From positions 62,001 to 124,292 of the forward strand of contig CALMGJ010000013.1 of assembly GCA_937863565.1 (NCBI GenBank): a DNA stretch of 62,292 nucleotides, written 5' to 3'. Under the pieces are notes generated by a model. That model saw only the letters and a list, made by a program, of their open reading frames with translations, was not told where the DNA came from and did not search any database. Made by a program: the position numbers and the translations under genes. The stretch comes from an uncultured bacterium. Its GTDB lineage: Bacteria; AUK180. Each line of letters opens with the position of its first letter. Positions within the stretch are counted from its first letter, which is position 1. Of this stretch, positions 22,746 through 62,292 are shown in pieces.

Positions 22746-24320
22746 TCAGCGCTTGATGAACATGTAAATCACGCTGCTAAGGACAATAATGAAGAAAATT
22801 ATACTTTCAAATATTTTTATCTTTTTAGGAGGGGCTGTTTTAGAACCCTCCGCTTTTGCATAGGTCAGCGAAGCACTGATCTTGGCATATTTCTCCTTGT
22901 TAAAACCTGTAAAAAAGTTTTCGCTGTCATTCTCACTGACGCTGAACGACCGCTTGAGTGTTCTCCGCATTCCGTTTTTAATATATCCGATATTCACTGT
23001 GAGAGCATTATCGGTAGTATTCGCAGTAAATTCGGATATATCCTTCCCGATCATTTTCCCATTGATCTCCACATCGCCTTTCCCGGAAAAAATGAATCTC
23101 ACGGGAAGCCCTTTCACGGGATTGTTCCTGTTCATTGAAATATGTTCTTCCTCCGAAAGCCGTTTCAGGAAACGGTCCGCGGCGCCGTCGACAAGTTTTT
23201 TTATATTCCTGTTCCCGGAAAGGTAAGCGTGCGAGTAATTGCTCAAAAGAAGAAGCACGCCGGAATCCGTTTCGGCGATAATCGGTTTTCCTTCATCATC
23301 CGACACGGCTGTTCTTCCATCCGGTTTTCCGGCCGGGAAGATATCCCTGAAAAGCTCGCCGTTCAATTTGAGCATTTGTCCGCTGTTCTTTCCGCCGGCC
23401 GCGGTACCCACATGGAGAGACGGGCCGTTCACAGGATACTTCGCAGATCCCTCATTGTAGTATACGATCCCGTGATAGACGGAAAGGTCTCCGGCAGGTT
23501 TTGAAATACTGAGGGTGTCCGTTCTGTAGCCTCCTGCAGCAAGAAGACGGGTTATGATCCCTATATCCGCGGATGGGTATCTGTAGACAACAAGTATCCG
23601 GGGGTCTTTTTTAAGTACGGTGATATCCCTCGTTATCATATTATCGAAAAAAGGATCGTCCGCATATGCGGCGACCGTGAACTGGTAGACCCCGTGAGCA
23701 GGGAAAACAGGCCGGAGAGGTACGAATGTCACTCCTTCTTTCACGCGTGTTTTAACTTCACATTCCTTTTTGCCGTCTATCATGCCGATGAGAACGGTCC
23801 CTTTTTCAGTATCCGATACGATCTTCACAAACACGGGATCGCCTGAACCTTCCTCAAGGACCTCAGGATACAAAGCCTCTACGGAAATGTTCTGTGGTGT
23901 CTGTTCCTTTTCTAGAGGCTTTAATTCGATATCGGCTTTCAAAGGCCGGTCGAAAGGGAGATCGGTATAGTTGAAATCGGAAAAAAAGACAGCTTTTTTC
24001 CCAAAGATCGAAGAGAAAAGAGCCGTTCTCCGAAGAAGCGCGAAGATACCGGAATCCGTGCCGTCAAAACCCCGGCAAGCAGTAAAACCGTTCTGAGCGG
24101 AAAGCATGCCGTTATCCGTTGCAAGGGCCTGTACGGCCATGCTTCGGGAAGTATCCGCTATACTGACACGGTCCGCCGTCACGACCTGTTTGAGTGTCAC
24201 GGCGATACCGGACAGTGTAAGCAGCATCAGAAGCGCGGGAATTATACGGGCAGATCTATGGCCTCTGCGGAAAAGACTTAAAACGATATACGCGGAAACT
24301 GATAAGATGACCGGGAACAT
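22746..24320 (-). CDS. Membrane protein with degenerate vWA (MIDAS-like) motif
   Basis: N-terminal hydrophobic segments, ADTSRSM (DxSxS), FFSD, C-terminal TM followed by KR. Confidence 0.6.
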   Translation of the reverse strand: MFPVILSVSAYIVLSLFRRGHRSARIIPALLMLLTLSGIAVTLKQVVTADRVSIADTSRSMAVQALATDNGMLSAQNGFTACRGFDGTDSGIFALLRRTALFSSIFGKKAVFFSDFNYTDLPFDRPLKADIELKPLEKEQTPQNISVEALYPEVLEEGSGDPVFVKIVSDTEKGTVLIGMIDGKKECEVKTRVKEGVTFVPLRPVFPAHGVYQFTVAAYADDPFFDNMITRDITVLKKDPRILVVYRYPSADIGIITRLLAAGGYRTDTLSISKPAGDLSVYHGIVYYNEGSAKYPVNGPSLHVGTAAGGKNSGQMLKLNGELFRDIFPAGKPDGRTAVSDDEGKPIIAETDSGVLLLLSNYSHAYLSGNRNIKKLVDGAADRFLKRLSEEEHISMNRNNPVKGLPVRFIFSGKGDVEINGKMIGKDISEFTANTTDNALTVNIGYIKNGMRRTLKRSFSVSENDSENFFTGFNKEKYAKISASLTYAKAEGSKTAPPKKIKIFESIIFFIIVLSSVIYMFIKR

Positions 24321-24323
24321 CCT

Positions 24324-25376
24324 TTATTTAAGTCCGAGAGCGCCTTTCAGAATAAGTGCCGCAGAGAGTGAGAAGTCCACGAGCAGCGTCTCGTCATCCG
24401 CCGAGAATTTATTCTTCTTCATGGATTCCACATTGAGAACGCCGATGAGCCGGTCGGATATCATAAGAGGAGCGGCGAGTTCAGCGCCCGTTTGGGAGCC
24501 TTCAACGGATAGGTATCGAGCGTCCTTTGATACATCGTTCACGCGGATAGAATGACGCTCCTTTGCGCAAAGTCCGGTCACTCCCTTGCCGAGAGGAATG
24601 CTCAAACCGTCCTTATACCGGTCGCTCAGACCGTATGAAGAATACAGGTTGAGGGCCACGGCACTTTCATTGTAGATGAGCACGCCGGCCGAATCGGCTT
24701 CGAATATCTCGGCCAGTTTTTTCACGATCAGGTCAAGCACTCTTCTCGGTTCGAGGTCCAGAAGAAGCATCCTGTCCACTTCTCTTAGGTTTTCAAGGGC
24801 TTTCACGCGGCGAATATCCTTCTGGCGTATCAGCGTATTCTGAAGAATAAGTTTATAGAACGGGATCATCAGCTCATAAACGGAAAGATCGTGTTTATCG
24901 AATTCAGAACTTCCCGTTTTGTCCGCGCTGAAAAGGCAGTAATGCATCCCATCCTCGTTGATCAGAGGCTCGAAAAGAGCCGATTGCAGATTAAAGGCCG
25001 AGAAGAGCTCTTCGGGGAAATGAGGCTCATTTTGCCGCGCCGCACTGAACAGAACGGCCTTCCTGCTGTCCAGAAGAGGGAACATCTCTTTTTTCCCCGT
25101 CATGAACGAGCTCAATTCTCCCTTGTCGATCCCGAACGAGAATATGACATCATACTGTTCTTTTATATTGTCGCGGTAGAACACGGCGCATTTCGTGATT
25201 TTCATGAGCCGCATGATCGAGGATGCGATAGCCGAGACGGTATCCTCTACTCCGGCGGCCGGTTTTTCCATTAGCACATTGACCTCTTTAAGAAGGGCGA
25301 TGAGCTCTCTTGATCTGAGAGAATCGTCGATATGCTTAAGGTCAGGCCGGAAGAGCTCTTTAAAGATATTCTTCAT
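24324..25376 (-). CDS. Tandem GAF-domain protein without output domain
   Basis: C-terminal GAF: GKGVTG...VNDVSKDARY...LAAPL...IGVLNVES...FSADD; N-terminal degenerate GAF. Confidence 0.82.
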   Translation of the reverse strand: MKNIFKELFRPDLKHIDDSLRSRELIALLKEVNVLMEKPAAGVEDTVSAIASSIMRLMKITKCAVFYRDNIKEQYDVIFSFGIDKGELSSFMTGKKEMFPLLDSRKAVLFSAARQNEPHFPEELFSAFNLQSALFEPLINEDGMHYCLFSADKTGSSEFDKHDLSVYELMIPFYKLILQNTLIRQKDIRRVKALENLREVDRMLLLDLEPRRVLDLIVKKLAEIFEADSAGVLIYNESAVALNLYSSYGLSDRYKDGLSIPLGKGVTGLCAKERHSIRVNDVSKDARYLSVEGSQTGAELAAPLMISDRLIGVLNVESMKKNKFSADDETLLVDFSLSAALILKGALGLK

Positions 25377-25714
25377 CTTATCGCCTCATCCCCCGTTTCA
25401 CCTGTACGTATTCTGATCACTCTTTCAACGGCCTCGACCCAGATCTTTCCGTCACCCATCCTTCCCGTCTGCAGGAATTCCTGGAGCTTTTCGAGGATAT
25501 GTTCCAGATCGCTGTCGAGAACGAGCATTTCTATCCTGCATTTCGGAAGGTCAATGATCTCGAAATTCTTGCCCGAGACGAGTTCCTTATGACCATACTG
25601 CCGCCCGAATCCCGTCACGTCGGAAAGCGTCCCTCCCTTTACCGGAATGGTCTTCAGGAATTTCAAAAGGTCCTTTTTTATATTTTCTCTGAATATGACG
25701 GTTATTTTCTTCAT
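25373..25714 (-). CDS. P-II family signal transduction protein
   Basis: GFGRQYG, LPK, TGRMGDGKIWV, RIRTGE; 113 aa. Confidence 0.93.
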   Translation of the reverse strand: MKKITVIFRENIKKDLLKFLKTIPVKGGTLSDVTGFGRQYGHKELVSGKNFEIIDLPKCRIEMLVLDSDLEHILEKLQEFLQTGRMGDGKIWVEAVERVIRIRTGETGDEAIR

Positions 25715-26252: not shown

Positions 26253-29189
26253 ATGAACACAAAAACATTAGAAAAGATCACTTTCTGGGCACAACTTGCT
26301 ACCATGCTCTTTCTTTCCTTCCTTGTTGCGATATTGCTTTCCCGTCAGACCGTGGACAGTTCAATTCTGAAAACATCGTGGGCTTTCGCACTGGCTCCGG
26401 TGATATTTTTTCTGTTCGTGATACGAATATCCCTTTTCAAAGGCGTCTATAAGCTCACGTTTTTGGAATACATCGTCCTCTCATACTATATCTGGGCGCT
26501 TCTCAATACGCTTTTCATCTCGCATTTCAGGCACGAGAGCCTTCTCCATCTTTTTAAAATATCATCGTACGTGATGATCTTTTTCGCTGCCGGAGAGATC
26601 TCCGGGAAAAAGGAATTCCGGGATATCTTCAATTATTTCATGATCTCTCTTGCGGGTGCGCTGATCACCTACGGCATGATGCAGAAGCTCGGCATGGATA
26701 TTTTCCAATGGGAGGGCGCTTCATCCGCGAACAGGATACTTTCCACTTTCGGGAATTCCATCTTCTATGCTAATTTCCTCCTCATGCTGTTGCCCTTCAT
26801 ATTCACGAATCTCGTCAAGGAAGTGCTCGGTTTCCTTAAATCTAAAAAGGACGTTTCTCCCATCTCCTTTCTACTGTCTCTTATTATCATGTTCGGCGTC
26901 CTCTGGCTTCTTGCGGCAATAGCATTCCGCATCTCCAAAGCCAAAGGGGGGTTTTCCGTACCGTTCCACAGATATGCGGTCATATCTCTTATTCTCGTAT
27001 ATGCGCTGATCAACTACTTCCTCATGAAAAAACTCAAGACCACGTACATGATCGTTTATCTTCTTTCGGCGAGCGTATTCGGCGTCTTCTCTCTGATATT
27101 CACCCTCTCCAGGGGGGCCTGGCTCGGTTTCATCCCGATGTTCATTTATTTCCTCTTTTTCACGGCTCTTTTTTTGAACAGGTTCGGATATCTGAAAATG
27201 CCCGGGAAGAATGTCTTTTTCGCCTCCTTCGCGGTCTTTGCAGGGATCATCCTTCTGGTGTTCCTGTTCCTGCCGGACAATATCAAGAACAGAGTGAAGG
27301 ATATCAAGCTCTCATCAACAACCGTCCAGGTTAGAACTACGATCTGGAAAGGAGCGTTGAGGATGATAAAGGCAAAGCCGGTCGGAGGTTTCGGCAGCGG
27401 CACTTTTCAACTCAATTTCCCTTCTTACAGACCCGATGATTATTCGACCAAGGCCGTTTCCAATAATACGATAAACACTCATTGCGAATACCTTCAGGTA
27501 GCGTCGAACATGGGGATGATCGGTTTTCTGATATTCGTTTTCCTGGGTTTCTCTCTCGTCGCGACAAATGCCCGATATCTGAAGAGGCTCATGAACGTAG
27601 ACGATTTTTTCTTCATGCTCTCCCTCGGGAGCGCCATTCTCGGGATACTCGTTCACGCATTATGGTGCGTTTCGATGCGTTTTACATCAACGATCATATA
27701 CTATTATCTTTATATCGGCTTCCTTTCCGGAATGGTCCGGTTCTATAAAGGGTCCGGCGGCGAGGAGGTGCGCGGCAAACCTTCATTCGCACTCTATCTG
27801 GGACTGGCAGGCATCCTGATCATTTCGCCCCTTTGGATGATAAAGGCGGATAAATTCTATGTGCGGGATTATTTCATTAGGCAGGGCATGCTGGCTGAGG
27901 AGGACATCAACAGAATAGATGCGGACGAGAGGCAGGCCGATTCATACCTGAACGATTCCCTTAAGAACGGGAAACCCAACGGGAAAGCACTCGAATTCAT
28001 GCTCAAGATTAGCAAATACTGGTACTCGATAAGGGCTTTTGCCCTGGATGCGCGGGAGAGGGCCGTATTTGAAGGATTCTTTAAATCCGCATCTAAGGAA
28101 AGAGAGCTCGATCCCAAGCGCAAGTACGGCATCAGGATCGTCCGGAACGATATGTACGAATTCCTTGCTCATAAGATGACTTTCGAAAAGATCGATGCCT
28201 TTATGACCGCCTATACTTCCATTTTCAATATTAATTATTCCGGGAAGAAAGCAGGCACGCGGAAAAAATATCTGCAGATATCAGTCGACTGGCTCATGAG
28301 CCTTATCGAAACGGGAAGGACGGGGTTCCCCGATATTCTTGCCGAGGCAGTGGAAAAATACCGCAGGGGCACGCTTTCCGTGCAGGAACTGGACGAACTC
28401 AGAAAGGTCTTTAAAAAATTCACGGCGTCTTTGAAGAGAGTTTATAATACCAGAACGGTCCTGTTCTATAATATGGGCATCATCACTGATTTCATCACCT
28501 ATGACTGTCATTATAAGAAGGCAAGCGCCTATTTTGAACTCGGCATGGTCAAGGAAGCTCTGGAATCATATGATGAACTCGAAACGATAGCCCCGGAATA
28601 CACTCAGCTCTCCTACAATAAAGGCGTCGTTCTTCGTAAGCTCGCCCACAGTGAAAAAGGCGATCCCGGTAAAAGGAACGAGCTTCTCCAAAGATCCGTA
28701 GATGAGCTGGAAAAAAGCCGCATCATCAATCCCTACTTTATCAACACAAGAATGCTTCTTGCGGCCGATTATGAAGAGCAGGGTAAATACGATCTTGCCA
28801 ATGAGGAATATATGTTCTCTTACCGCTACTCGGTGGACCAGGTGATGAATTACCTTTATCCGCATCCCAATACGATTATGTTCAGAAGGAGCGATATCGA
28901 AAGGGGTATTCAGATCTTTGTGAATTCAGCCCGTAAGATCGACGCATATTTCGAGAATAATTCCCGGAATGAGGACCTGGACGCCTTTAAAAAGGAATAC
29001 ACCCTGGCAGTGGAAGGGATCAAAGAGAAGAGTGTGAAGCTCTTCGAGGAGTTCTCAAGCACTTCTTATCCCCCGGAGATAACGAACGAGAAAAAGAAAC
29101 AGCAGGCCATGGGATTTCTGAAAAGCATAGAGATAACCATGGACAGGGTGAAGGAACTCGTCAGATCTTCCACCAGTATTCAAGATTAA
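26253..29189 (+). CDS. O-antigen ligase (Wzy_C)-family membrane protein with C-terminal TPR region
   Basis: Many TMs, STFGNSIF, TLSRGAW, RTTIW..GGFGSGTF, HCEYLQ..GMIG; TPR-like repeats in C-terminal third. Confidence 0.85.
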   Translation: MNTKTLEKITFWAQLATMLFLSFLVAILLSRQTVDSSILKTSWAFALAPVIFFLFVIRISLFKGVYKLTFLEYIVLSYYIWALLNTLFISHFRHESLLHLFKISSYVMIFFAAGEISGKKEFRDIFNYFMISLAGALITYGMMQKLGMDIFQWEGASSANRILSTFGNSIFYANFLLMLLPFIFTNLVKEVLGFLKSKKDVSPISFLLSLIIMFGVLWLLAAIAFRISKAKGGFSVPFHRYAVISLILVYALINYFLMKKLKTTYMIVYLLSASVFGVFSLIFTLSRGAWLGFIPMFIYFLFFTALFLNRFGYLKMPGKNVFFASFAVFAGIILLVFLFLPDNIKNRVKDIKLSSTTVQVRTTIWKGALRMIKAKPVGGFGSGTFQLNFPSYRPDDYSTKAVSNNTINTHCEYLQVASNMGMIGFLIFVFLGFSLVATNARYLKRLMNVDDFFFMLSLGSAILGILVHALWCVSMRFTSTIIYYYLYIGFLSGMVRFYKGSGGEEVRGKPSFALYLGLAGILIISPLWMIKADKFYVRDYFIRQGMLAEEDINRIDADERQADSYLNDSLKNGKPNGKALEFMLKISKYWYSIRAFALDARERAVFEGFFKSASKERELDPKRKYGIRIVRNDMYEFLAHKMTFEKIDAFMTAYTSIFNINYSGKKAGTRKKYLQISVDWLMSLIETGRTGFPDILAEAVEKYRRGTLSVQELDELRKVFKKFTASLKRVYNTRTVLFYNMGIITDFITYDCHYKKASAYFELGMVKEALESYDELETIAPEYTQLSYNKGVVLRKLAHSEKGDPGKRNELLQRSVDELEKSRIINPYFINTRMLLAADYEEQGKYDLANEEYMFSYRYSVDQVMNYLYPHPNTIMFRRSDIERGIQIFVNSARKIDAYFENNSRNEDLDAFKKEYTLAVEGIKEKSVKLFEEFSSTSYPPEITNEKKKQQAMGFLKSIEITMDRVKELVRSSTSIQD

Positions 29190-32100
29190 ATACGTCCAGA
29201 GGATGGGGCCTGAACCCCTTGAGGTTCTTCAATGTCATTGTGTATTGAAGTGAATGATTCAGAAACAGTGCCGGTGCTTCGGCGATGATCTTGTTTTCTA
29301 TCTCGGCGTACAGATCAAGTCTTTTTTCCCTGTTCATCATCGTCATCGCGATATCGAGTTTCTTGTCTATATCGGCATCCCTGTACCAGAAATAATTGCC
29401 GGAGACGCCTATATTGCGTGAATGGAACAGCGGATAGAAGAAATTATCCGGATCGCCGTTGTCGGAGATCCAACCTAGCAGGAAAAGCTGATTCGTTCCT
29501 TCTTTACAGCGTTTTATCAGCTCTGCCCATGATACTTCATTCAATTCGACAGCAATATTTACATCCGTAAGATATTCTTTTATCAACTCCGCTTTTTTCC
29601 TTTCGGCATCGCCTGATGAGAACGAGAGCGTAAACGGCATCTTGATGCCGTTCTTGAGACCTGCGCTCCTTAAAAGGGCCGCAGCCTGTTCCGGATCATA
29701 ATGATATGCTTCTTTTCTCTGTTGTTTGAGGATTCCGGGAGGAAGAACGCCGTCAGCCGGTATTGCCATTCTTCCATACGCCTCCTTGACGACTTTAGAC
29801 TTGTCTATCGCATAACAGATCGCCTTTCTTACCGCGCTCAATTGAAGCTCGGGGCGGGAGGATATATTAAAACCGAGGTATCTCACATCCAACTGGGATA
29901 CACTGTATATATTTCCTTCATAGGATATCTTCTGGTCTTGAACAATAGATACAAGATTGGCATTGGGTATCATGATATCGGTCTTGCCTGTTAGAAAATC
30001 GTTCTGGATCTTCTTTTCGTCATTCTCTATCAGGATATTGATACGGTCGAAATTATCCGTGTTCAGGAAATAATGTTCGGATTTCTTGAGAACGATCTCC
30101 TTCGGGTCCATCCGGTCTATCACGAAAGGGCCGATCCCGACGGGGATCTCCTCCAATACCGTATTCCCTTTCCATAAGACCGAACCGGTTATAGTTCCCA
30201 GGTTGCTGTAAAAAGGTGTATAGAGTTCCGAGAATTTAAAGGCGAACTTTTTCTTACTTATATAAATGAGCCCGTCTATGAACTTCCTCTTGCCTTCCTC
30301 AAATTCCTTCGCTCCTTCCAGGAACTCGAAGAAGTACTGGTTCGGGGAAGGATTCCCTACATTGAAGATCTTGTAGAAAGAGAATATCACATCCTCGGAA
30401 GTCACTTCCTCGCCGTTATTGAAGAAGATATCGTCCCTCAGGGTTATCTCGATCAGATATCCGTAATTCTTTATTTCCCATTCTTTGATGATATGCGGAA
30501 GTATCGAAAGCGAATTGGATATCTTGAAAAGTCCCGAATGAAGGAAATTTAAAAATTTCATCGAAGTATTGTCGGTCACCATATGAGGATCGAAAGTGAT
30601 CGGCCGGTTGTTGAAAACAAGTGTAAGTTCTCTTAAGCGCGAGTGCTTCTTATAATCCCTGAACTCCATATCACAAGCGAATCTGCGGAGAATATCCCGG
30701 TCTTTCGTCAGCATCAGTTCCTTGATGAACACTTCGATCGTTTTATTATAAGAGATCACCCTTTTGAAGTATTTTTCGCTTTCCTTGTAAATGCTCAGCA
30801 GCTCGTTTATCTTTGAAAGCGAAAGTTCGGAGAAGGTGTTCATGTTCTTGATATTCTCGAGTGTCTCCCCAAAATTCTCCTTTATAAAAGCGTTATTGTT
30901 GAGTATCTCCCCTCCCAGATCCTTTATATCGTCGATGAGCTCGAAGATCCTTGAAAGGTCGGTCAAGGCCTTCGAAACGTAGATACCCAGCGTTTCCACC
31001 TCGGAGATGCTCTTTTTGATGAGAAGCTCGATCTGCAGATTAGAATCGGAATTCTCCTTCGTGATGGAGCGTATCTGCTTTATGATGGAGAGTATGTCCT
31101 CTTTGATATCAGGGTTTTTTTCCGCTTCCATCGCGGAAAAATATGAAAGATCATTGATCTTGTTCAGGAACTCGAATATCTTCTTCAGTCTCTGTGTGAA
31201 ATTATTAAGGAAGTTCTCGTACATCTGGAGGTTAAGATAGAATGAATTGAGAAGGAGTTTCAGGTTCGCGAACACCCTCGGATCTATATCCGAAGTTGAG
31301 ACATTTATCTGGTACATAGGAACGATGATCTCTTTGAGCCCCTCAAATTCCTTTATCAGAAGTGAGAATTTCTCCATCGCACCCTGAAAGAAATCATACT
31401 CCCCTATCAAAGAGTAATAATCCTCATTGAACTTCATCTTAAGATTATTCAATTGATTCACTCCGTTCTCCAGCGTAACGGAGAATTTCGTGTATATCGA
31501 AGAGAAGATCCCCTTGAAATGGCTGAACCGGCCGTCATCGCCGGTTATCGCGCACTCCTTCACATTGGCGAGGTACTCAAGATTGAAGAGTTTATCGGGG
31601 AAGAACTGAATATCCGGGTCCTTGAAATAATTCTCCTCTTCCGAGTAGATGTTTAGAAGGTAGTAATCTTCGAGGAACATCTCTTCGTAAATCCCCACGT
31701 CGTTCTCGTCAAGCATCTTGATCTTGGCCTTGAAAAGGTTATCCGTCCTTTCCACGAGGTCTTCGAACAGGTTCAGAAGTTTACTTTTAAAGAACTCAAA
31801 ACGGCCTATCTCGAAATCATGGTCGCCACGGTCAGTGTGCTCGCAGATGATCCCGGCCTTCCTGAAATTCGCCTCAAGCATCTCCTCTATGTGCTGCGGG
31901 AATTTCTCTTTCTTGTAAACCTTCAATTTCATTTCTCCCGAGGAACCGGCAACGGCATTTTCTATGACGCGCTTCCCTTCACGGCAGAATGAATAGGTAT
32001 CGAAGTTCCCGGCAAGAAGGTTGAATATCGGACGGCGCTGATCGACGGAGAGTTTTCCGGACAACATGAAGTAATAAAAACCGGTGTTGACCTTTTCCTT

Positions 32101-33621
32101 GCCTTCTCCGAAAGCTATCTCGTAGTCCGATTCCTGCCCGAACAGGATCTCCTCTATGAAAATATTACGCGATAAGTAGTGCTGGTTAGGCACCATTCTC
32201 CCTTCCTTCATGCAGAACTGGCCGCATGTGTTCTCAAGGTATGTTCCCGGATAAGAGTCCCTCCAAATCACCGGTATGGAATTCTTGCCGAGTTTGTATA
32301 TGAAGTCGGGATCGTTCTTCTTTAACTGGATATAAAGTCCGAACTTCCCGAGGAAACCTATCCCGTCTATCACTTTTGAGGAGCCTTCCATGAACTTCTC
32401 ATAACCCTCGATATTGGAAAAATCGCTGTCGCCGGCATTTTTCAGGTAGTTCTCCAGAGAATACTTAACATCTTCCGCTTCCAGAACATTGCCGTTAGCG
32501 AACAGCACATCTGTGCGGAGATAGACCATAATGATCTTCTTGGTATGGATATACTCGTGCCGCTGGATGATATTGGGAAGCACATCGTTCCTTTGTACGT
32601 TAACAAGCGGCCGGAACAGGAGCTTGAAGATGAAGATATCCCTCAGTGACGATATCCTGTACGGATCGAAACCTGTGATCGGGTCCTTTACACTTATGTT
32701 CTTCTCATAATAATCCGGGTCGTCCAGAAAATGCGTTCCCAGACGGACTATTTCGTTCAGACCGTCCAAAGAGATCTTCAGTTCATCGAAAATGGCTTTG
32801 AACTCGTCGAATCTCAGCGAATTGAGCTTGCTGTTCTCGTTGATGCCTTTGAGGATCTTGTTGAGCTTGTCCTGAATATCGTTCAGTTCGCTCAGAATAT
32901 ACGCGATGATCCCGCTGGAACGCTTCAACTTGGGCGTGATCACTCTTATCCTGTTATGGTAGTCCTTGAAAATATCGATATCGTTGTTCACCTTGACAAT
33001 ATTGGCATGTATGCTTTCCTCGAGCTGGCCGAACTTCTTGTTCTCCGCCTTGATCTTCTGGCTCAATTCCGAATACTGAGCGAAATCCACTCCGAACTTA
33101 TTGATGATATTGATGATCTCCTCGGAATAAGAAGTGACATTGTCCGCGATTATCGATATCGTCCTCTGCTGTTCCTGGCCTTTGAAGGATTTGATGATCG
33201 TGTTGAGTGCAAGCTGTTTTACGGAATTGGCCATCTTATAAAGCGATTCGGAATTGGCCTTGAACTTATCGAAGAGTTTTTCGAGAGTATAATTGGTGCT
33301 TTCGATGTTCTCTGTCACAAAATTGATGACCTGATTGTACTGACTGATCTCGAGGAAATACTTCAGAAGCTTCTCGAGTTTCTCGGACAGGGCGCGGGCG
33401 TTCTGCATGATCTTGATGGAATTTGTGCTGAAATTGGCGGATTCGCTCTGGATGCTCTTCACGAGCTCGTTCAAATCGCCTATCACCTCTTCCTGTATAT
33501 CGGAGATCGTCTTGAACTGCTGGAACTGGTCCTTGAAATTGTTGTAGTGTATCTCCTCGTACTTCTGTTTGTCGCGGATATAGTTTATGATATTGAGGAT
33601 ATTAGGAATATCGTATTTCAA
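29161..33621 (-). CDS. Giant soluble fusion: 2x [MCP-like coiled-coil hairpin + family-5 solute-binding domain]
   Basis: QLALNTII...ISIIADNV resembles the MCP tip; SBP5 motifs FDP...LR.DV.F.NG....EDV.(Y/F)S occur twice; the second SBP has GIGPF, VRKAICYAID, LGWISD.DP; TTG start overlaps the ATPase stop. Confidence 0.8.
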   Translation of the reverse strand: MKYDIPNILNIINYIRDKQKYEEIHYNNFKDQFQQFKTISDIQEEVIGDLNELVKSIQSESANFSTNSIKIMQNARALSEKLEKLLKYFLEISQYNQVINFVTENIESTNYTLEKLFDKFKANSESLYKMANSVKQLALNTIIKSFKGQEQQRTISIIADNVTSYSEEIINIINKFGVDFAQYSELSQKIKAENKKFGQLEESIHANIVKVNNDIDIFKDYHNRIRVITPKLKRSSGIIAYILSELNDIQDKLNKILKGINENSKLNSLRFDEFKAIFDELKISLDGLNEIVRLGTHFLDDPDYYEKNISVKDPITGFDPYRISSLRDIFIFKLLFRPLVNVQRNDVLPNIIQRHEYIHTKKIIMVYLRTDVLFANGNVLEAEDVKYSLENYLKNAGDSDFSNIEGYEKFMEGSSKVIDGIGFLGKFGLYIQLKKNDPDFIYKLGKNSIPVIWRDSYPGTYLENTCGQFCMKEGRMVPNQHYLSRNIFIEEILFGQESDYEIAFGEGKEKVNTGFYYFMLSGKLSVDQRRPIFNLLAGNFDTYSFCREGKRVIENAVAGSSGEMKLKVYKKEKFPQHIEEMLEANFRKAGIICEHTDRGDHDFEIGRFEFFKSKLLNLFEDLVERTDNLFKAKIKMLDENDVGIYEEMFLEDYYLLNIYSEEENYFKDPDIQFFPDKLFNLEYLANVKECAITGDDGRFSHFKGIFSSIYTKFSVTLENGVNQLNNLKMKFNEDYYSLIGEYDFFQGAMEKFSLLIKEFEGLKEIIVPMYQINVSTSDIDPRVFANLKLLLNSFYLNLQMYENFLNNFTQRLKKIFEFLNKINDLSYFSAMEAEKNPDIKEDILSIIKQIRSITKENSDSNLQIELLIKKSISEVETLGIYVSKALTDLSRIFELIDDIKDLGGEILNNNAFIKENFGETLENIKNMNTFSELSLSKINELLSIYKESEKYFKRVISYNKTIEVFIKELMLTKDRDILRRFACDMEFRDYKKHSRLRELTLVFNNRPITFDPHMVTDNTSMKFLNFLHSGLFKISNSLSILPHIIKEWEIKNYGYLIEITLRDDIFFNNGEEVTSEDVIFSFYKIFNVGNPSPNQYFFEFLEGAKEFEEGKRKFIDGLIYISKKKFAFKFSELYTPFYSNLGTITGSVLWKGNTVLEEIPVGIGPFVIDRMDPKEIVLKKSEHYFLNTDNFDRINILIENDEKKIQNDFLTGKTDIMIPNANLVSIVQDQKISYEGNIYSVSQLDVRYLGFNISSRPELQLSAVRKAICYAIDKSKVVKEAYGRMAIPADGVLPPGILKQQRKEAYHYDPEQAAALLRSAGLKNGIKMPFTLSFSSGDAERKKAELIKEYLTDVNIAVELNEVSWAELIKRCKEGTNQLFLLGWISDNGDPDNFFYPLFHSRNIGVSGNYFWYRDADIDKKLDIAMTMMNREKRLDLYAEIENKIIAEAPALFLNHSLQYTMTLKNLKGFRPHPLDVFNLEYWWKI

Positions 33622-35303
33622 AGCGATGTGACCCTGAGCACCTCCTGGATGGTCGTTATGCCTTTGATCACTTTCATTACGCCTGCCTCTCTCAATGTAC
33701 TGATCTTTTTACCGGAGCAGTATTCGCGAATATCCTTCGTACTCCCTTCCTCTGAGATCATCTTCGAGATATTGTCGTCGAAAGGTATGATCTCGTAAAT
33801 GGCCTCCCTGCCTAAATAGCCTGTATTATTGCATTCCTTGCATCCTTTTCCCTTGGTGAAGATGAAATCATCACCGGCTATATTGAGGAGTTTCAACTCA
33901 TGCTCTTCGGGCTTGTAATATGTCTTGCAGAAATTACAGACCTTCCGCGTCAGTCTTTGAGCGATCACGCCCAATATGGTAGATGAGATCAGGTAATTCG
34001 GAATGCCCATATCGCGGAGTCTGTCTATGGCGGACACGGCATCGTTGGTATGGAGTGTGGATAGAACAAGATGCCCCGTAAGTGCGGCGCGTATGGCGTG
34101 GTCTATGGTCTCTTTGTCCCTCATCTCCCCCACCATGACCACATCCGGGTCCTGTCTCAGCATCTCTCTCAATACGGAGGCGAAATCGAGGCCGATCGCG
34201 TGATTGAGGTTTATCTGATTGAAATCCTCATTTATCAGTTCAACCGGGTCCTCAACGGTCACGATGTTCAATGTATCGTTCTTCAGATGATTCAGCGTCG
34301 CATACAATGTCGTGGTCTTACCGGATCCCGTAGGGCCTGTGATGAGCACTATGCCGTGCGTATGATCGATGATGTTCTTGTAGCGTTTATATTCGTTCTT
34401 ATCCATGCCTAGATCGGCGATGTTCTTGCTGAGATTCTCCGGATCAAGGAGCCTGAGCACTATCTTCTCTCCGAAAAGAGTAGGCACCACGGCTACCCTG
34501 AGTTCGACCGCCCTGTCATTGTGCTCGACCCTGATTCTTCCGTCCTGCGGCTTCCTCCGTTCAGAAATATCGAGACCCGCCATTATCTTGATCCTTGCGG
34601 TCATTGCGAACTGGAGTGTTTTCGGTATCTTGCGGACAGTATGGAGCATGCCGTCGATCCTGAGGCGGATGTTCACGGTCTCCCTTTTCGGTTCGATATG
34701 TATGTCCGACGCTCTCTGATCGATCGCCTTATGGATGATCAGGTCGATGAGATTAATGATCGGTTGTTCCTTTTCGAGTATCCTCGAGATCTGGGATATA
34801 TCCGTCGTATTCAGAAGATCGATCCCCCTCACGTCGATGAGTGCCCTTTCAATGGAATTGGAAAGACCGTAGAATTCATTGATCACTTTGTTGATATCGC
34901 GGTCCATTACTAGCGTAAAGATGATCTTCCGGGGATGGTACAGTTTCACCAGGTCGTCATATTCCGCAGTCGTGAGCAGTCTGGAAAGGGCGAGTACGGC
35001 CTGCTTATCGGTTTTTACGGTGCACACGGTCTTTATGTTCCTCGCGAAGGATTCGGGGATATTGCCGGTTATCTCGGGATCCAGTTCAAGGGGATCGACC
35101 TTTGTGAACTCTATCCCTATCTCGGCGGCAAGGTTCTTCTTGAAATCCTCCTCTGACAAGAACTTCCTTCTGATCAGGATCGTTTCTATCGCCTCGCCGC
35201 TTTTCTCGCTTTCAAGCGCCGCTGAATCGATATGCTCCTTCTTCACGAGCTTGTTCTTGCTCAGAAACTCTTTAAAATTCAGTCTCTCCCTTATCGGCAG
35301 CAT
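33618..35303 (-). CDS. GspE/PilB-family secretion/pilus assembly ATPase
   Basis: ASDIHIEP, PQDGR, GPTGSGKTTT, TVEDPVE, LRQDPDVVMVGEMRD, TGHLVLSTLHTN, CxxC..CxxC zinc motif. Confidence 0.95.
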   Translation of the reverse strand: MLPIRERLNFKEFLSKNKLVKKEHIDSAALESEKSGEAIETILIRRKFLSEEDFKKNLAAEIGIEFTKVDPLELDPEITGNIPESFARNIKTVCTVKTDKQAVLALSRLLTTAEYDDLVKLYHPRKIIFTLVMDRDINKVINEFYGLSNSIERALIDVRGIDLLNTTDISQISRILEKEQPIINLIDLIIHKAIDQRASDIHIEPKRETVNIRLRIDGMLHTVRKIPKTLQFAMTARIKIMAGLDISERRKPQDGRIRVEHNDRAVELRVAVVPTLFGEKIVLRLLDPENLSKNIADLGMDKNEYKRYKNIIDHTHGIVLITGPTGSGKTTTLYATLNHLKNDTLNIVTVEDPVELINEDFNQINLNHAIGLDFASVLREMLRQDPDVVMVGEMRDKETIDHAIRAALTGHLVLSTLHTNDAVSAIDRLRDMGIPNYLISSTILGVIAQRLTRKVCNFCKTYYKPEEHELKLLNIAGDDFIFTKGKGCKECNNTGYLGREAIYEIIPFDDNISKMISEEGSTKDIREYCSGKKISTLREAGVMKVIKGITTIQEVLRVTSL

Positions 35304-60671: not shown

Positions 60672-62292
60672 GTGAGAAAATTTGCACTGATCCTCCTTGC
60701 TCTGATATGGATGCTGTCTTCTTTTTCAGCAGCAGGGATAAAGGAGGCAATGGACCTTTTCAAAGCCGACAGATTCGCGGAGGCGGAGAAACTGTTCCTC
60801 GATCTTGTCGGTCAGAATCCGAGGAATCTCATCATCTATCCTTATCTTATTAAATGCCTATATGAGAACAGTAAAAGCGATGAAGCTTTAAAATACCTCG
60901 AAATACTTGACGGGAATAATTCTCCTGCGGCTCAAAGACTGATCGATAGAGCTCTTTACTCGGAGATCCTGTACGAGAAAGGGGAATATTCCGGCGCGCT
61001 TCTGATGGCCGAGAACGGAATAGAACATTCGAAAGATGTGCAGAAAACGGCAAGGCTCGAGATACTCCGGGACCTGAGCAGACTGGCACTTGAGGACTTC
61101 GTCAAGGAAAAGGGCATCAGGATCGACCGCGGGAAATGGATGGGGTCCGCCCTGCTTCAATATTATATATGCGCCATCTATGGGATCAAGGATGCCATCG
61201 GGCGTTTTCCCGGAGCGGCGGATGACAACGAATGGGCAAGCACACGTGATAATTCAATGTCAGGATACCTCAAGGAGAGTTCAAGCCATCTCGATGAGCT
61301 TATGAAGAAGATGGATGGCGATTCGAAGGATATCGGGAAAGGAGATGAAGCGCTTTGCCTGGAAATGCTCGTTGAGAGAACTAAGGACGAGATCTGGCGG
61401 CTTACTTTGAGGGACAGCATCTCTAAAGCTGTCATCGCTAAAAGAACAAGGGCGGCAAAGACGTTCTTGAACGAATATAATGCGAAATTTCCCGGCCGGC
61501 CTTTGCCCGGAGCGGCGAACCTTATTCGTAAGGTAAGCTCAGAGCGGAACATTGCTGTCCTTTTGATCGTCTTTGTGATCTCTACCTCGGGTATTGCTTT
61601 GTTCTTCTTTTTAAGAAAGAAAGGGATCGGGATAATGATAAAACCGTTCAAGGGCAGAACCGCAGAAGATCGGAGATCAACAAAGGAAGAACAGGGCCCT
61701 GAAACGGTTTCGGCCGGTCCCGTGAAAACCGCAGAGAAGATCACCGAAGGGAAAGAAGATATCATCGTGAAACCGGAGAACGAAGGACCTGAAGCGCCTG
61801 CCGGACCGCTCCCGGAGATCCCCTCTGTAACCGTTGGAACGGGGGTCGTAAAAGAAGAAGAAGGATCATCTGTTCTTAAGGAAGAAGCAATAAACGGTGG
61901 AACGGAATCATCAGTTGAAGGACTTGAAAAACCGGTCAATGAGGAAATGCCTGCCGAAACCGTAAGCAAGGCACTCGAAAAAGAAGAATGCAAAAAATCA
62001 ACGGAAACTGAAGAACAGGCAATACTGCCTGCCGAAAAGCTCCGTGATGAAAAAGAAGGAATAAGCGCAAGCGAGGCGACCGGGGAATCCGGACCTGAAA
62101 AAAAGCCGGACCTTTTCGCGGTTGCCGATTCGCCGGATATCGGAGGATTGTTCGGAGAAGAAGGGAACGGGGTTAAGGAAAGAACTGTTGTGCCGGTGCC
62201 GGAAGCAGTCGGCAATATGCCGGAAGCAGGCGGCAATGTGCCGGAAGCAGGCGGCAATGTGCCGGAAGCAGGCGGCAATGTGCCGGAAGCAG
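60672..62292 (+). CDS. Type I membrane protein: signal peptide, TPR-like region, TM, acidic repetitive tail (partial; absent from ORF track)
   Basis: Manual translation MRKFALILLALIWMLSSFSAA...FAEAEKLFLDLV...IAVLLIVFVISTSGIALFFFLRKK..., open to the window end. Confidence 0.85.
   Translation, partial: MRKFALILLALIWMLSSFSAAGIKEAMDLFKADRFAEAEKLFLDLVGQNPRNLIIYPYLIKCLYENSKSDEALKYLEILDGNNSPAAQRLIDRALYSEILYEKGEYSGALLMAENGIEHSKDVQKTARLEILRDLSRLALEDFVKEKGIRIDRGKWMGSALLQYYICAIYGIKDAIGRFPGAADDNEWASTRDNSMSGYLKESSSHLDELMKKMDGDSKDIGKGDEALCLEMLVERTKDEIWRLTLRDSISKAVIAKRTRAAKTFLNEYNAKFPGRPLPGAANLIRKVSSERNIAVLLIVFVISTSGIALFFFLRKKGIGIMIKPFKGRTAEDRRSTKEEQGPETVSAGPVKTAEKITEGKEDIIVKPENEGPEAPAGPLPEIPSVTVGTGVVKEEEGSSVLKEEAINGGTESSVEGLEKPVNEEMPAETVSKALEKEECKKSTETEEQAILPAEKLRDEKEGISASEATGESGPEKKPDLFAVADSPDIGGLFGEEGNGVKERTVVPVPEAVGNMPEAGGNVPEAGGNVPEAGGNVPEA
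62196..62292 (+). repeat. 21-bp coding tandem repeat, at least 4.6 copies (VPEAGGN)
   Basis: GTGCCGGAAGCAGGCGGCAAT units at 62196, 62217, 62238, 62259 and a partial unit at 62280; first two differ by one base each. Confidence 0.95.

Follow-up and report, generated by a model that had tools for sequence, protein, structure and literature searches.

The gene examined here lies on a contig from an uncultured bacterium of the lineage AUK180 (assembly GCA_937863565.1, contig CALMGJ010000013.1), in a stretch of 62,292 nucleotides (contig positions 62,001 to 124,292) that is called the window below and to which coordinates refer unless another locus is given. It is read as a single open frame whose TTG start shares 4 bases (TTGA) with the stop of the ATPase gene before it, and an AGGAGG sequence stands 19 nt upstream of the start. 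Its product of 1486 aa, P0001, consists of a helical hairpin, a shrunken family-5 substrate-binding protein (SBP5) domain, a second helical hairpin and an intact, DppA-like SBP5 domain, in this order, and both hairpins are predicted to descend from the signalling hairpin of methyl-accepting chemotaxis proteins (MCPs). The gene and its parts are as follows:

29161..33621, minus strand: receptor gene (P0001), 1486 aa, single open frame, TTG start
32722..33621, minus strand: hairpin 1 (aa 1-300), predicted descendant of an MCP signalling hairpin, arms of around 146 and 151 residues
33136..33216, minus strand: tip 1 (aa 136-162, QLALNTIIKSFKGQEQQRTISIIADNV), aligned gapless and in register to MCP tips
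31537..32721, minus strand: SBP5-1 (aa 301-695), shrunken, degenerate family-5 SBP domain
30652..31536, minus strand: hairpin 2 (aa 696-990), degenerate MCP-type hairpin
31072..31155, minus strand: tip 2 (aa 823-850, NDLSYFSAMEAEKNPDIKEDILSIIKQI), in register via the second tips of the relatives P0011 and P0020/27/78
29164..30651, minus strand: SBP5-2 (aa 991-1486), intact DppA-like family-5 SBP domain, presumed ligand sensor

Four-part architecture of P0001

The sole Pfam family found in P0001 was SBP_bac_5, which appeared as one full and one partial copy. SBP5-2 matched at aa 1041-1404 in the whole-protein scan (E 2.8e-73) and, when scanned alone, covered profile positions 3-366 of 368 in PF00496 (E 7.4e-66, 223 bits). 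The match of SBP5-1 scanned alone was restricted to about aa 360-452, covered profile positions 15-99 only and fell below the cut-off (29.6 bits against 32.4, E 5e-7). Comparison of the two copies with each other by BLASTP (aa 314-486 against aa 1007-1181, 27 % identity, E 2e-12) and hhalign (98.3 %, E 2.6e-14 over 341 columns) agreed with Pfam in bearing out the part order and the internal duplication that an initial annotation had read from the sequence. SBP5-1 is around 100 residues shorter than SBP5-2, has lost the GW..DNGDPDNF segment and is the fastest-evolving part of the protein, with 28-32 % identity between genera vs 45-57 % for the other three parts.

The closest solved structure to SBP5-2 is E. 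coli DppA (1dpp), which aligns end to end (E 2.9e-45). In DppA, Asp408 contacts the amino group of the peptide and Arg355 its carboxylate; the aspartate aligned to D408 is D1387 in P0001 and is invariant. P0001 holds the only SBP_bac_5 domains of its genome. A family-5 SBP acting as the ligand sensor of a chemoreceptor is known from E. coli, where DppA works with Tap (PMC8050422). In that pair (1DPP/1DPE) the SBP is free and periplasmic and docks on a membrane receptor, whereas in P0001 it is fused and, by prediction, cytoplasmic.

P0001 has no transmembrane segment by hydropathy (maximal 19-residue Kyte-Doolittle mean 0.98), and its N-terminus, MKYDIPNILN, is neither a signal peptide nor a lipobox, in agreement with the initial annotation. 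We predict P0001 to be a soluble cytoplasmic protein. The earlier remark that no ABC permease is near also held, i.e. BPD_transp_1 is absent from the window's contig and its four matches in the genome fall on contigs C9 and C19. At a distance of 17 kb from the receptor gene there is an MsbA-type ABC exporter.

Relatives of P0001 and history of the doubled form

Relatives were sought by a word-indexed search of 5.8 billion proteins and with HMMER, run exhaustively on 1.84 billion representatives. The former found four lineages of the 1438-1488-aa protein; the latter gave five matches at E <= 1e-30 and added nothing nearer than P0011 (E 4e-44). The gene is present in eight of the nine representative genomes of the phylum, the exception being 69 % complete. 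The window's own family (f1) has the decayed type, and both genomes of a sister family (f2) have the P0011 type, i.e. proteins of 1605-1606 aa with a Pfam-positive MCPsignal domain and two intact SBP5 domains. P0011 is collinear with P0001 over all four parts, which identifies it, at the level of sequence, as the orthologue in the sister family; it differs from P0001 by its detectable MCPsignal, GKGF in tip 1, an intact SBP5-1 and the lack of an ATPase neighbour. In one f1 genome (G001; locus L024, contig C252, 818-5304) two frames, of 946 and 574 aa, take the place of one in the orthologue, and P0009 is a 932-aa piece of this split orthologue with a garbled tail; the split would be due either to an assembly frameshift or to a pseudogene.

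Single MCPsignal-SBP5 fusions of 808-844 aa, the existence of which had been mentioned in the initial annotation, accounted for 19 of the 150 best matches, and P0006 from Acetoanaerobium pronyense is a further one. They consist of the same soluble block, i.e. a hairpin with a C-terminal SBP5, and differ from P0001 in having one unit per chain, a canonical tip and methylation-type motifs (4/4); presumably, they dimerise. The architecture search also revealed that the two-hairpin layout recurs and is not unique to P0001. An (MCP-SBP5)x2 layout with intact MCPsignal is found in P0007, P0011, P0013 and P0040, while P0110 is a doubled form that ends after the second hairpin and P0005, P0020, P0027 and P0078 have an MCP-MCP-SBP5 layout.

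In a maximum-likelihood tree of the SBP5 domains, obtained by a quick short search and with long-branch warnings for the first SBP5 copies, SBP5-2 of P0001 groups in one clade with the second SBP5 of P0011 (SH-aLRT 97). In the P0007 group, the two SBP5 copies form a pair of sister clades surrounded by single fusions (97), which argues for a duplication separate from that of the P0011/P0001 lineage. Judged from these sequences, the two-hairpin doubled form seems to have arisen at least twice.

In the literature searched, the coverage of which did not extend to the review of cytoplasmic chemoreceptors by Collins et al. (2014), no published description of a doubled or two-hairpin MCP-SBP5 architecture was found, nor was the doubled form presented there as a conventional chemoreceptor. 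The accessible parts of PMC8050422 and PMC10443332 contain only free SBPs docking on receptors. P0001 is a decayed member of a class of soluble two-hairpin MCP-SBP5 receptors that this literature has left undescribed. Source names were available for 4 of 16 proteins listed; all four read ‘ABC transporter substrate-binding protein’, with ‘methyl-accepting chemotaxis protein’ added in one case, and the former name is misleading for two-hairpin receptors.

SBP_bac_5 domains also occurred in pairs (as four stretches in P0018) in P0012, P0018, P0025, P0030, P0112 and P0014, where they are fused to STAND AAA_16 NTPases, to Ser/Thr kinases, to a BTAD regulator, to a SIR2-like domain or to a DyP peroxidase. 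Reuse of family-5 SBPs as sensor modules in the cytoplasm, frequently as tandem copies, seems to be widespread: the two-hairpin proteins would present them in this role, and the STAND NTPase and kinase fusions point in the same direction.

Origin of the hairpins, their tips and their packing

Several profile comparisons indicate that hairpin 1 derives from an MCP signalling hairpin. Run against all PDB sequences, a profile built from four members of the family gave nine matches, seven of which are MCPs, and the best matches of hairpin 1 (2ch7, E 9e-4; 3g67, E 6e-3) have the tip in register. A hidden Markov model (HMM) of this coiled coil alone (CC1), run against 148 sequences, matches P0011 collinearly at aa 24-295 (35 bits, E 9e-11), a region that Pfam assigns to MCPsignal with E 3.5e-22. 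In hhalign, hairpin 1 matched the first hairpins of nine relatives at 95.9 % (E 5.8e-9), while its reversed sequence, as control, reached 36 %, and 28/30 of its matches in the ESM Atlas were MCPsignal clusters (score 0.95). An initial hhalign comparison of both coiled coils (CC1 and CC2) with a six-sequence MCP set had given 69 % vs 60 % for the reversed control and was replaced by these larger hairpin sets.

For hairpin 2, an MCP origin is indicated transitively, through intermediates. It matched the second hairpins of the relatives at 90.8 % (E 1.2e-6; reversed controls 9-16 %), and these in turn matched canonical MCP hairpins at 99.9 % (both hhalign). The CC2-only HMM finds the second hairpin of P0027 (E 1e-6), and collinear BLAST alignments run through tip 2 in P0011 (E 3e-102, from aa 798) and P0005 (E 1e-69, from aa 787). 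In the ESM Atlas, 26/30 matches were MCPsignal clusters with scores of 0.91-0.92, a level also attained, according to the figures given with the tool, by 4-10 % of shuffled proteins. The MCP homology of the coiled coils that had been proposed on sight was hence recovered by profile methods, in the case of hairpin 2 only via intermediates.

Both tips stand where the initial annotation had placed them, align gapless with MCP tips and fall at the helix turns of an AlphaFold2 (AF2) model of aa 1-1000 that is weak overall (mean pLDDT 51, pTM 0.34, arm pLDDT around 60-83). Hairpin 1 has helices 40-144 and 149-257 with the turn at aa 145-148, and hairpin 2 has helices 781-833 and 840-969 with the turn at aa 834-839. 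In gapless alignment, the tips form a graded series from canonical MCPs over P0011 (tip 1, NQLSINASIKSLKAGDKGKGFAVIA; tip 2, NNFSLYASIEAARTSGFEQELKEIS) to P0001 (tip 1, KQLALNTIIKSFKGQEQQRTISIIA; tip 2, NDLSYFSAMEAEKNPDIKEDILSII). In tip 1 of P0001, LALN, the E-Q-x-R turn and the IIA..V pattern are all retained in register, and the tip matches that of Tsr at 10/26 positions counted by eye. Tip 2 keeps only a few canonical positions. In place of GRGF, tip 1 has QRTI and tip 2 has IKED, and neither tip conforms to the canonical MCP consensus; tip 1 of P0011 still has GKGF. In hairpin 2, both the Asn of LALN and GRGF are missing from P0001, P0011, P0005, P0020, P0027 and P0078, while the P0007 group has kept the Asn and lost GRGF. 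Seen across P0001, P0011 and the MCP-MCP relatives, a pseudo-dimer of the two hairpins would be asymmetric, with a degenerate tip in hairpin 2 and a more MCP-like one in hairpin 1.

The tips had been called eroded, which is correct with respect to the MCP consensus, yet within the family they are the best-conserved parts of the hairpins: across the four lineages, 25/50 positions are invariant in aa 127-176 around tip 1 and 26/50 in aa 815-864 around tip 2, compared with around 19 % in the rest of the hairpins. This argues that the tips are under selection for some contact. Outside the tips, near-invariant patches in the same lineages are aa 92-109 (ISQYNQVINFVTENIE; 33295-33348), aa 737-752 (SL.GEYDFFQG.ME.F; 31366-31413) and aa 931-952 (S..SLSKINELLSIYKE.EKYF; 30766-30831). 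The last two stand around 90-100 residues either side of tip 2, which would put them level with each other along the hairpin and close to the SBP5 junctions. The methylation pattern [ASTG][ASTG]xx[EQ][EQ]xx[ASTG][ASTG], a crude expression of the consensus, occurs in neither hairpin of P0001, P0003 and P0008; overall, a methylation-type pattern was present in 4/4 single fusions vs 0/6 two-hairpin proteins checked.

P0001 combines two hairpins of matched length and at least one C-terminal SBP5 in a soluble chain, and the occurrence of exactly two matched hairpins per chain in three gene layouts fits an intramolecular four-helix bundle of the MCP kind. The AF2 model of P0027 aa 1-609, built from a six-row alignment (mean pLDDT 86.4, pTM 0.59), has helices 2-305, 308-457 and 459-608, i.e. 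four segments of around 150 residues. Its residues 77-541 align to the single-chain four/five-helix bundles TTYH2 (Z 17.1, 309 residues, rmsd 5.5) and ClyA (Z 14.4), and its residues 306-609 to the TM1143 hairpin (2ch7_B; Z 13.3, rmsd 4.0, 304 residues), all of which are matches of model geometry and not of kinship. Since the bundles cover residues 77-541, all four helices would lie side by side. Foldseek on the same model returned mostly meaningless long-helix matches with huge rmsd, 2ch7_B being the only usable one. Co-folding of P0001 aa 35-300 with aa 696-975 scored 0.59 (0.59, 0.60 and 0.56), against 0.00 for the best of three controls; the runs shared at least 80 % of contacts, with a partner pLDDT of at least 71. 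Among 157 solved complexes 116 reach the mark applied to this score, as do 2 of 215 mismatches, and values of up to 0.60 hold only 18 of the 157 together with both passing mismatches. As far as these models go, a single-chain pseudo-dimer would be the most economical reading and the best-supported mechanism. The initial annotation had proposed just this, and of its proposal the MCP origin, the cytoplasmic location and the lack of an adjoining transporter stood, while the pseudo-dimer draws its support from models.

The soluble MCPs of Thermotoga maritima (TM14, 3G67; cytoplasmic domain of TM1143, 2CH7) are likewise cytoplasmic antiparallel coiled-coil hairpins with a U-turn at the tip. They are homodimers with one hairpin per chain and canonical tips, unlike P0001 with its two differing hairpins per chain, decayed tips and two SBP5 domains. 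Two joined MCP hairpins reportedly mimic the dimer in engineered single-chain constructs of receptor signalling domains, a report that the literature searched did not contain; such constructs are man-made and symmetric, P0001 is natural and asymmetric.

Genomic context, output and alternative readings

Two neighbouring genes adjoin the receptor gene directly:

33618..35303, minus strand: PilB/GspE-type ATPase, 561 aa, T2SSE with E 5e-132, MshEN at its cut-off
26253..29189, plus strand: Wzy_C (O-antigen-ligase-like) and TPR protein, 978 aa, convergent, 29-base 3' overlap with the receptor gene

The ATPase is intact, with a Walker A and two CxxC motifs; a look by eye for the cyclic di-GMP motif of MshEN saw none. 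Its gene is directly upstream of the receptor gene in all six f1 genomes that have the latter, i.e. in four genera, despite the divergence of the receptor to 38 % identity across them. In both f2 genomes the ATPase gene does not adjoin the receptor gene and another gene is found upstream (an HD-domain gene, by Pfam in G008 and by eye in G007), so that we rejected the adjacency as an ancestral state. The adjacency is one lineage-specific event and coincides with the decay of the tips, a coincidence that is no more than suggestive. The f2 orthologue of the ATPase (53 % identity vs 36-39 % for paralogues) stands first, in G008 (L028, contig C160, 606-4670), in a run with an aminotransferase gene, two N_methyl (prepilin-type) genes and a small open reading frame (ORF) without a Pfam match, and this run may represent an operon for a minor type IV filament.

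The search of the window's genome for cheA and cheW that had been recommended found both. The genome has only two Pfam-positive MCPs, together with two CheA, CheW-domain matches at seven places, two CheR and two CheB. Two clusters of Che genes are present: the first combines a classical CheA and CheC/D with a PATAN-TPR protein and a PilT-like ATPase, and the second has a CheA-REC hybrid together with a REC-HD-GYP protein. Of the Che clusters, that on contig C29 (L026, 3742-15303) carries a cNMP-binding protein and CheC/CheD, two TPR proteins, of which one has a DUF4388 (PATAN) domain and the other is long, and a PilT-like ATPase, a composition that points to chemosensory control of pilus retraction. 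Four full-length PilB/GspE-like and three PilT-like ATPases (ATPase genes on contigs C10, C27, C13 and C9) were found along with two secretins and a single PilC-type platform gene (C10:1938-2918). FHIPEP, the FlhA-family flagellar export gene, was not found in this genome, which is 95.5 % complete.

Our preferred reading, to which we assign a probability of around 0.6, is that P0001 is a soluble single-chain descendant of MCPs with two hairpins, which forms a pseudo-dimer, senses through SBP5-2 and acts on type IV filaments. An ancestral unit of MCP hairpin and SBP5 would have been duplicated in tandem, and hairpins 1 and 2 would now pack within one chain as a four-helix bundle resembling that of the MCP homodimer. 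SBP5-2 would be the working sensor of a small cytoplasmic ligand, probably peptide-like, at the tip-distal end of the bundle, and the closure of its clamshell would be relayed along the bundle as far as the conserved tips, while SBP5-1 would be a relic in decay, its main role now that of a linker between helices 2 and 3. Most likely, the signal would bear on the behaviour of type IV filaments, either via CheW/CheA or directly via the ATPase. Such an output is suggested by the loss of GRGF, the lack of a methylation motif, the coupling to the ATPase, the lack of a flagellar export gene, the two Che pathways and the pilus genes, and both the Che proteins and the PilB-like ATPase are candidate partners; the initial annotation had proposed that the tips no longer bind Che proteins and signal to another partner.

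A number of results weigh against this reading. MCPsignal (PF00015), run as had been proposed, gave 10.5 bits on P0001 (aa 94-163, E 0.55) and 11.8 bits on P0008 at a cut-off of 34.6, and so fails on the protein itself, although it is positive in the orthologue P0011. In hhalign, hairpin 2 did not match canonical MCP hairpins directly (2.7 %) and the two hairpins did not match each other (0.2 %); they have diverged too far for the duplication to be visible from them, and it is the SBP5 domains that show it. The controls for the coiled coils were not clean, since reversed CC1 reached 59.6 % against the six-sequence MCP set. With regard to packing, the AF2 model of aa 1-1000 is too poor for domain or hairpin packing to be read, the bundle of P0027, a distant relative, was deduced from aligning PDB folds and not from coordinates, and the co-folding verdict for the P0001 hairpins was graded as ‘weak support’, with a score that may be due to solved MCP dimers known to the model. 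With regard to the ligand, the residue aligned to R355 of DppA is F1334, with Phe or Tyr in relatives, and an aromatic residue here makes it unlikely that a free dipeptide is bound as in DppA. With regard to the output, the order uvrA-pgm-maf-ATPase-X is also conserved in f1, so the adjacency of the ATPase may be plain synteny, and the f2 orthologue of the ATPase is elsewhere, near pilin-like genes.

Somewhat improbable, in our view, is that P0001 is a chemoreceptor that still works, the bundle of which joins the CheW/CheA arrays of one of the two Che pathways, as a soluble receptor in addition to the two canonical MCPs, and makes type-IV-pilus motility responsive to a cytoplasmic metabolite. 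The complete Che sets of a genome with only two Pfam-positive MCPs would leave room for it, and it would account for LALN, E-Q-x-R and IIA..V in tip 1, for the conservation of both tips and for the GKGF and MCPsignal score of the f2 orthologue. However, GRGF, the Phe of which is essential in Tsr, is lost in both tips, MCPsignal fails on Pfam and the methylation-type motif is missing from all six two-hairpin proteins.

It is less likely again that the receptor has been rewired in f1, binding and gating the co-translated PilB/GspE-type ATPase so that the ligand controls a filament motor without Che. The TTGA overlap and the upstream ATPase in 6/6 f1 genomes, kept although the receptor has fallen to 38 % identity, would speak in its favour, as would the decay of the tips and the new adjacency in the same lineage and the pilin-like genes that adjoin the ATPase orthologue in f2. 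A precedent for a partner outside Che is Tls from E. coli phylogroup B2, an MCP-like protein that, according to PMC12623472, acts through a partner outside the chemotaxis pathway; Tls is a Trg-like membrane protein which sequesters FlhDC and has neither an SBP fusion nor a second hairpin. The adjacency is, however, one evolutionary event, and neighbouring housekeeping genes are equally syntenic. A bolder version, which we regard as speculative, is that natural single-chain receptors are asymmetric pseudo-dimers with one silent hairpin, and that the one described here has left the Che pathway to become a ligand-gated regulator of the co-translated PilB-type ATPase; if true, it would be a direct switch from metabolite to pilus motor. 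That P0001 is an ordinary ABC-transporter substrate-binding protein, as the source names of P0004, P0011 and P0078 and the strong SBP_bac_5 match would have it, is very hard to reconcile with the missing signal peptide, lipobox, transmembrane segment and permease on the contig, the around 600 residues of MCP-type hairpin and the relatives with a Pfam MCPsignal.

If P0001 is, as we prefer, a single-chain pseudo-dimer, it bears on a general property of MCPs, the dimers of which are symmetric in sequence and used asymmetrically in signalling arrays. Diverged natural hairpins would show which half needs which residues, and asymmetry could be tested with natural sequences. Almost all genomes of the phylum, which is small and uncultured, has type IV pilus and Che genes and yielded no flagellar export gene, carry the receptor gene, which suggests that it is probably part of a decision to move or to attach.

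A Wzy_C gene flanks the receptor gene in f1 and is also a neighbour in the f2 genome G008, the one checked, where it encodes 418 aa on the same strand (L021, 5527-6780). Enzymes that O-glycosylate pilins belong to the Wzy_C family, and a link of this neighbour to pili is conceivable. Further along the window, an ORF of 524 aa without a Pfam match (22746-24320) comes after the gene of a 350-aa protein, for the N-terminal half of which there is no assignment and which ends in a C-terminal GAF domain; this gene follows that of a P-II nitrogen regulator, with a 4-base overlap between the two (24324-25714, minus strand).

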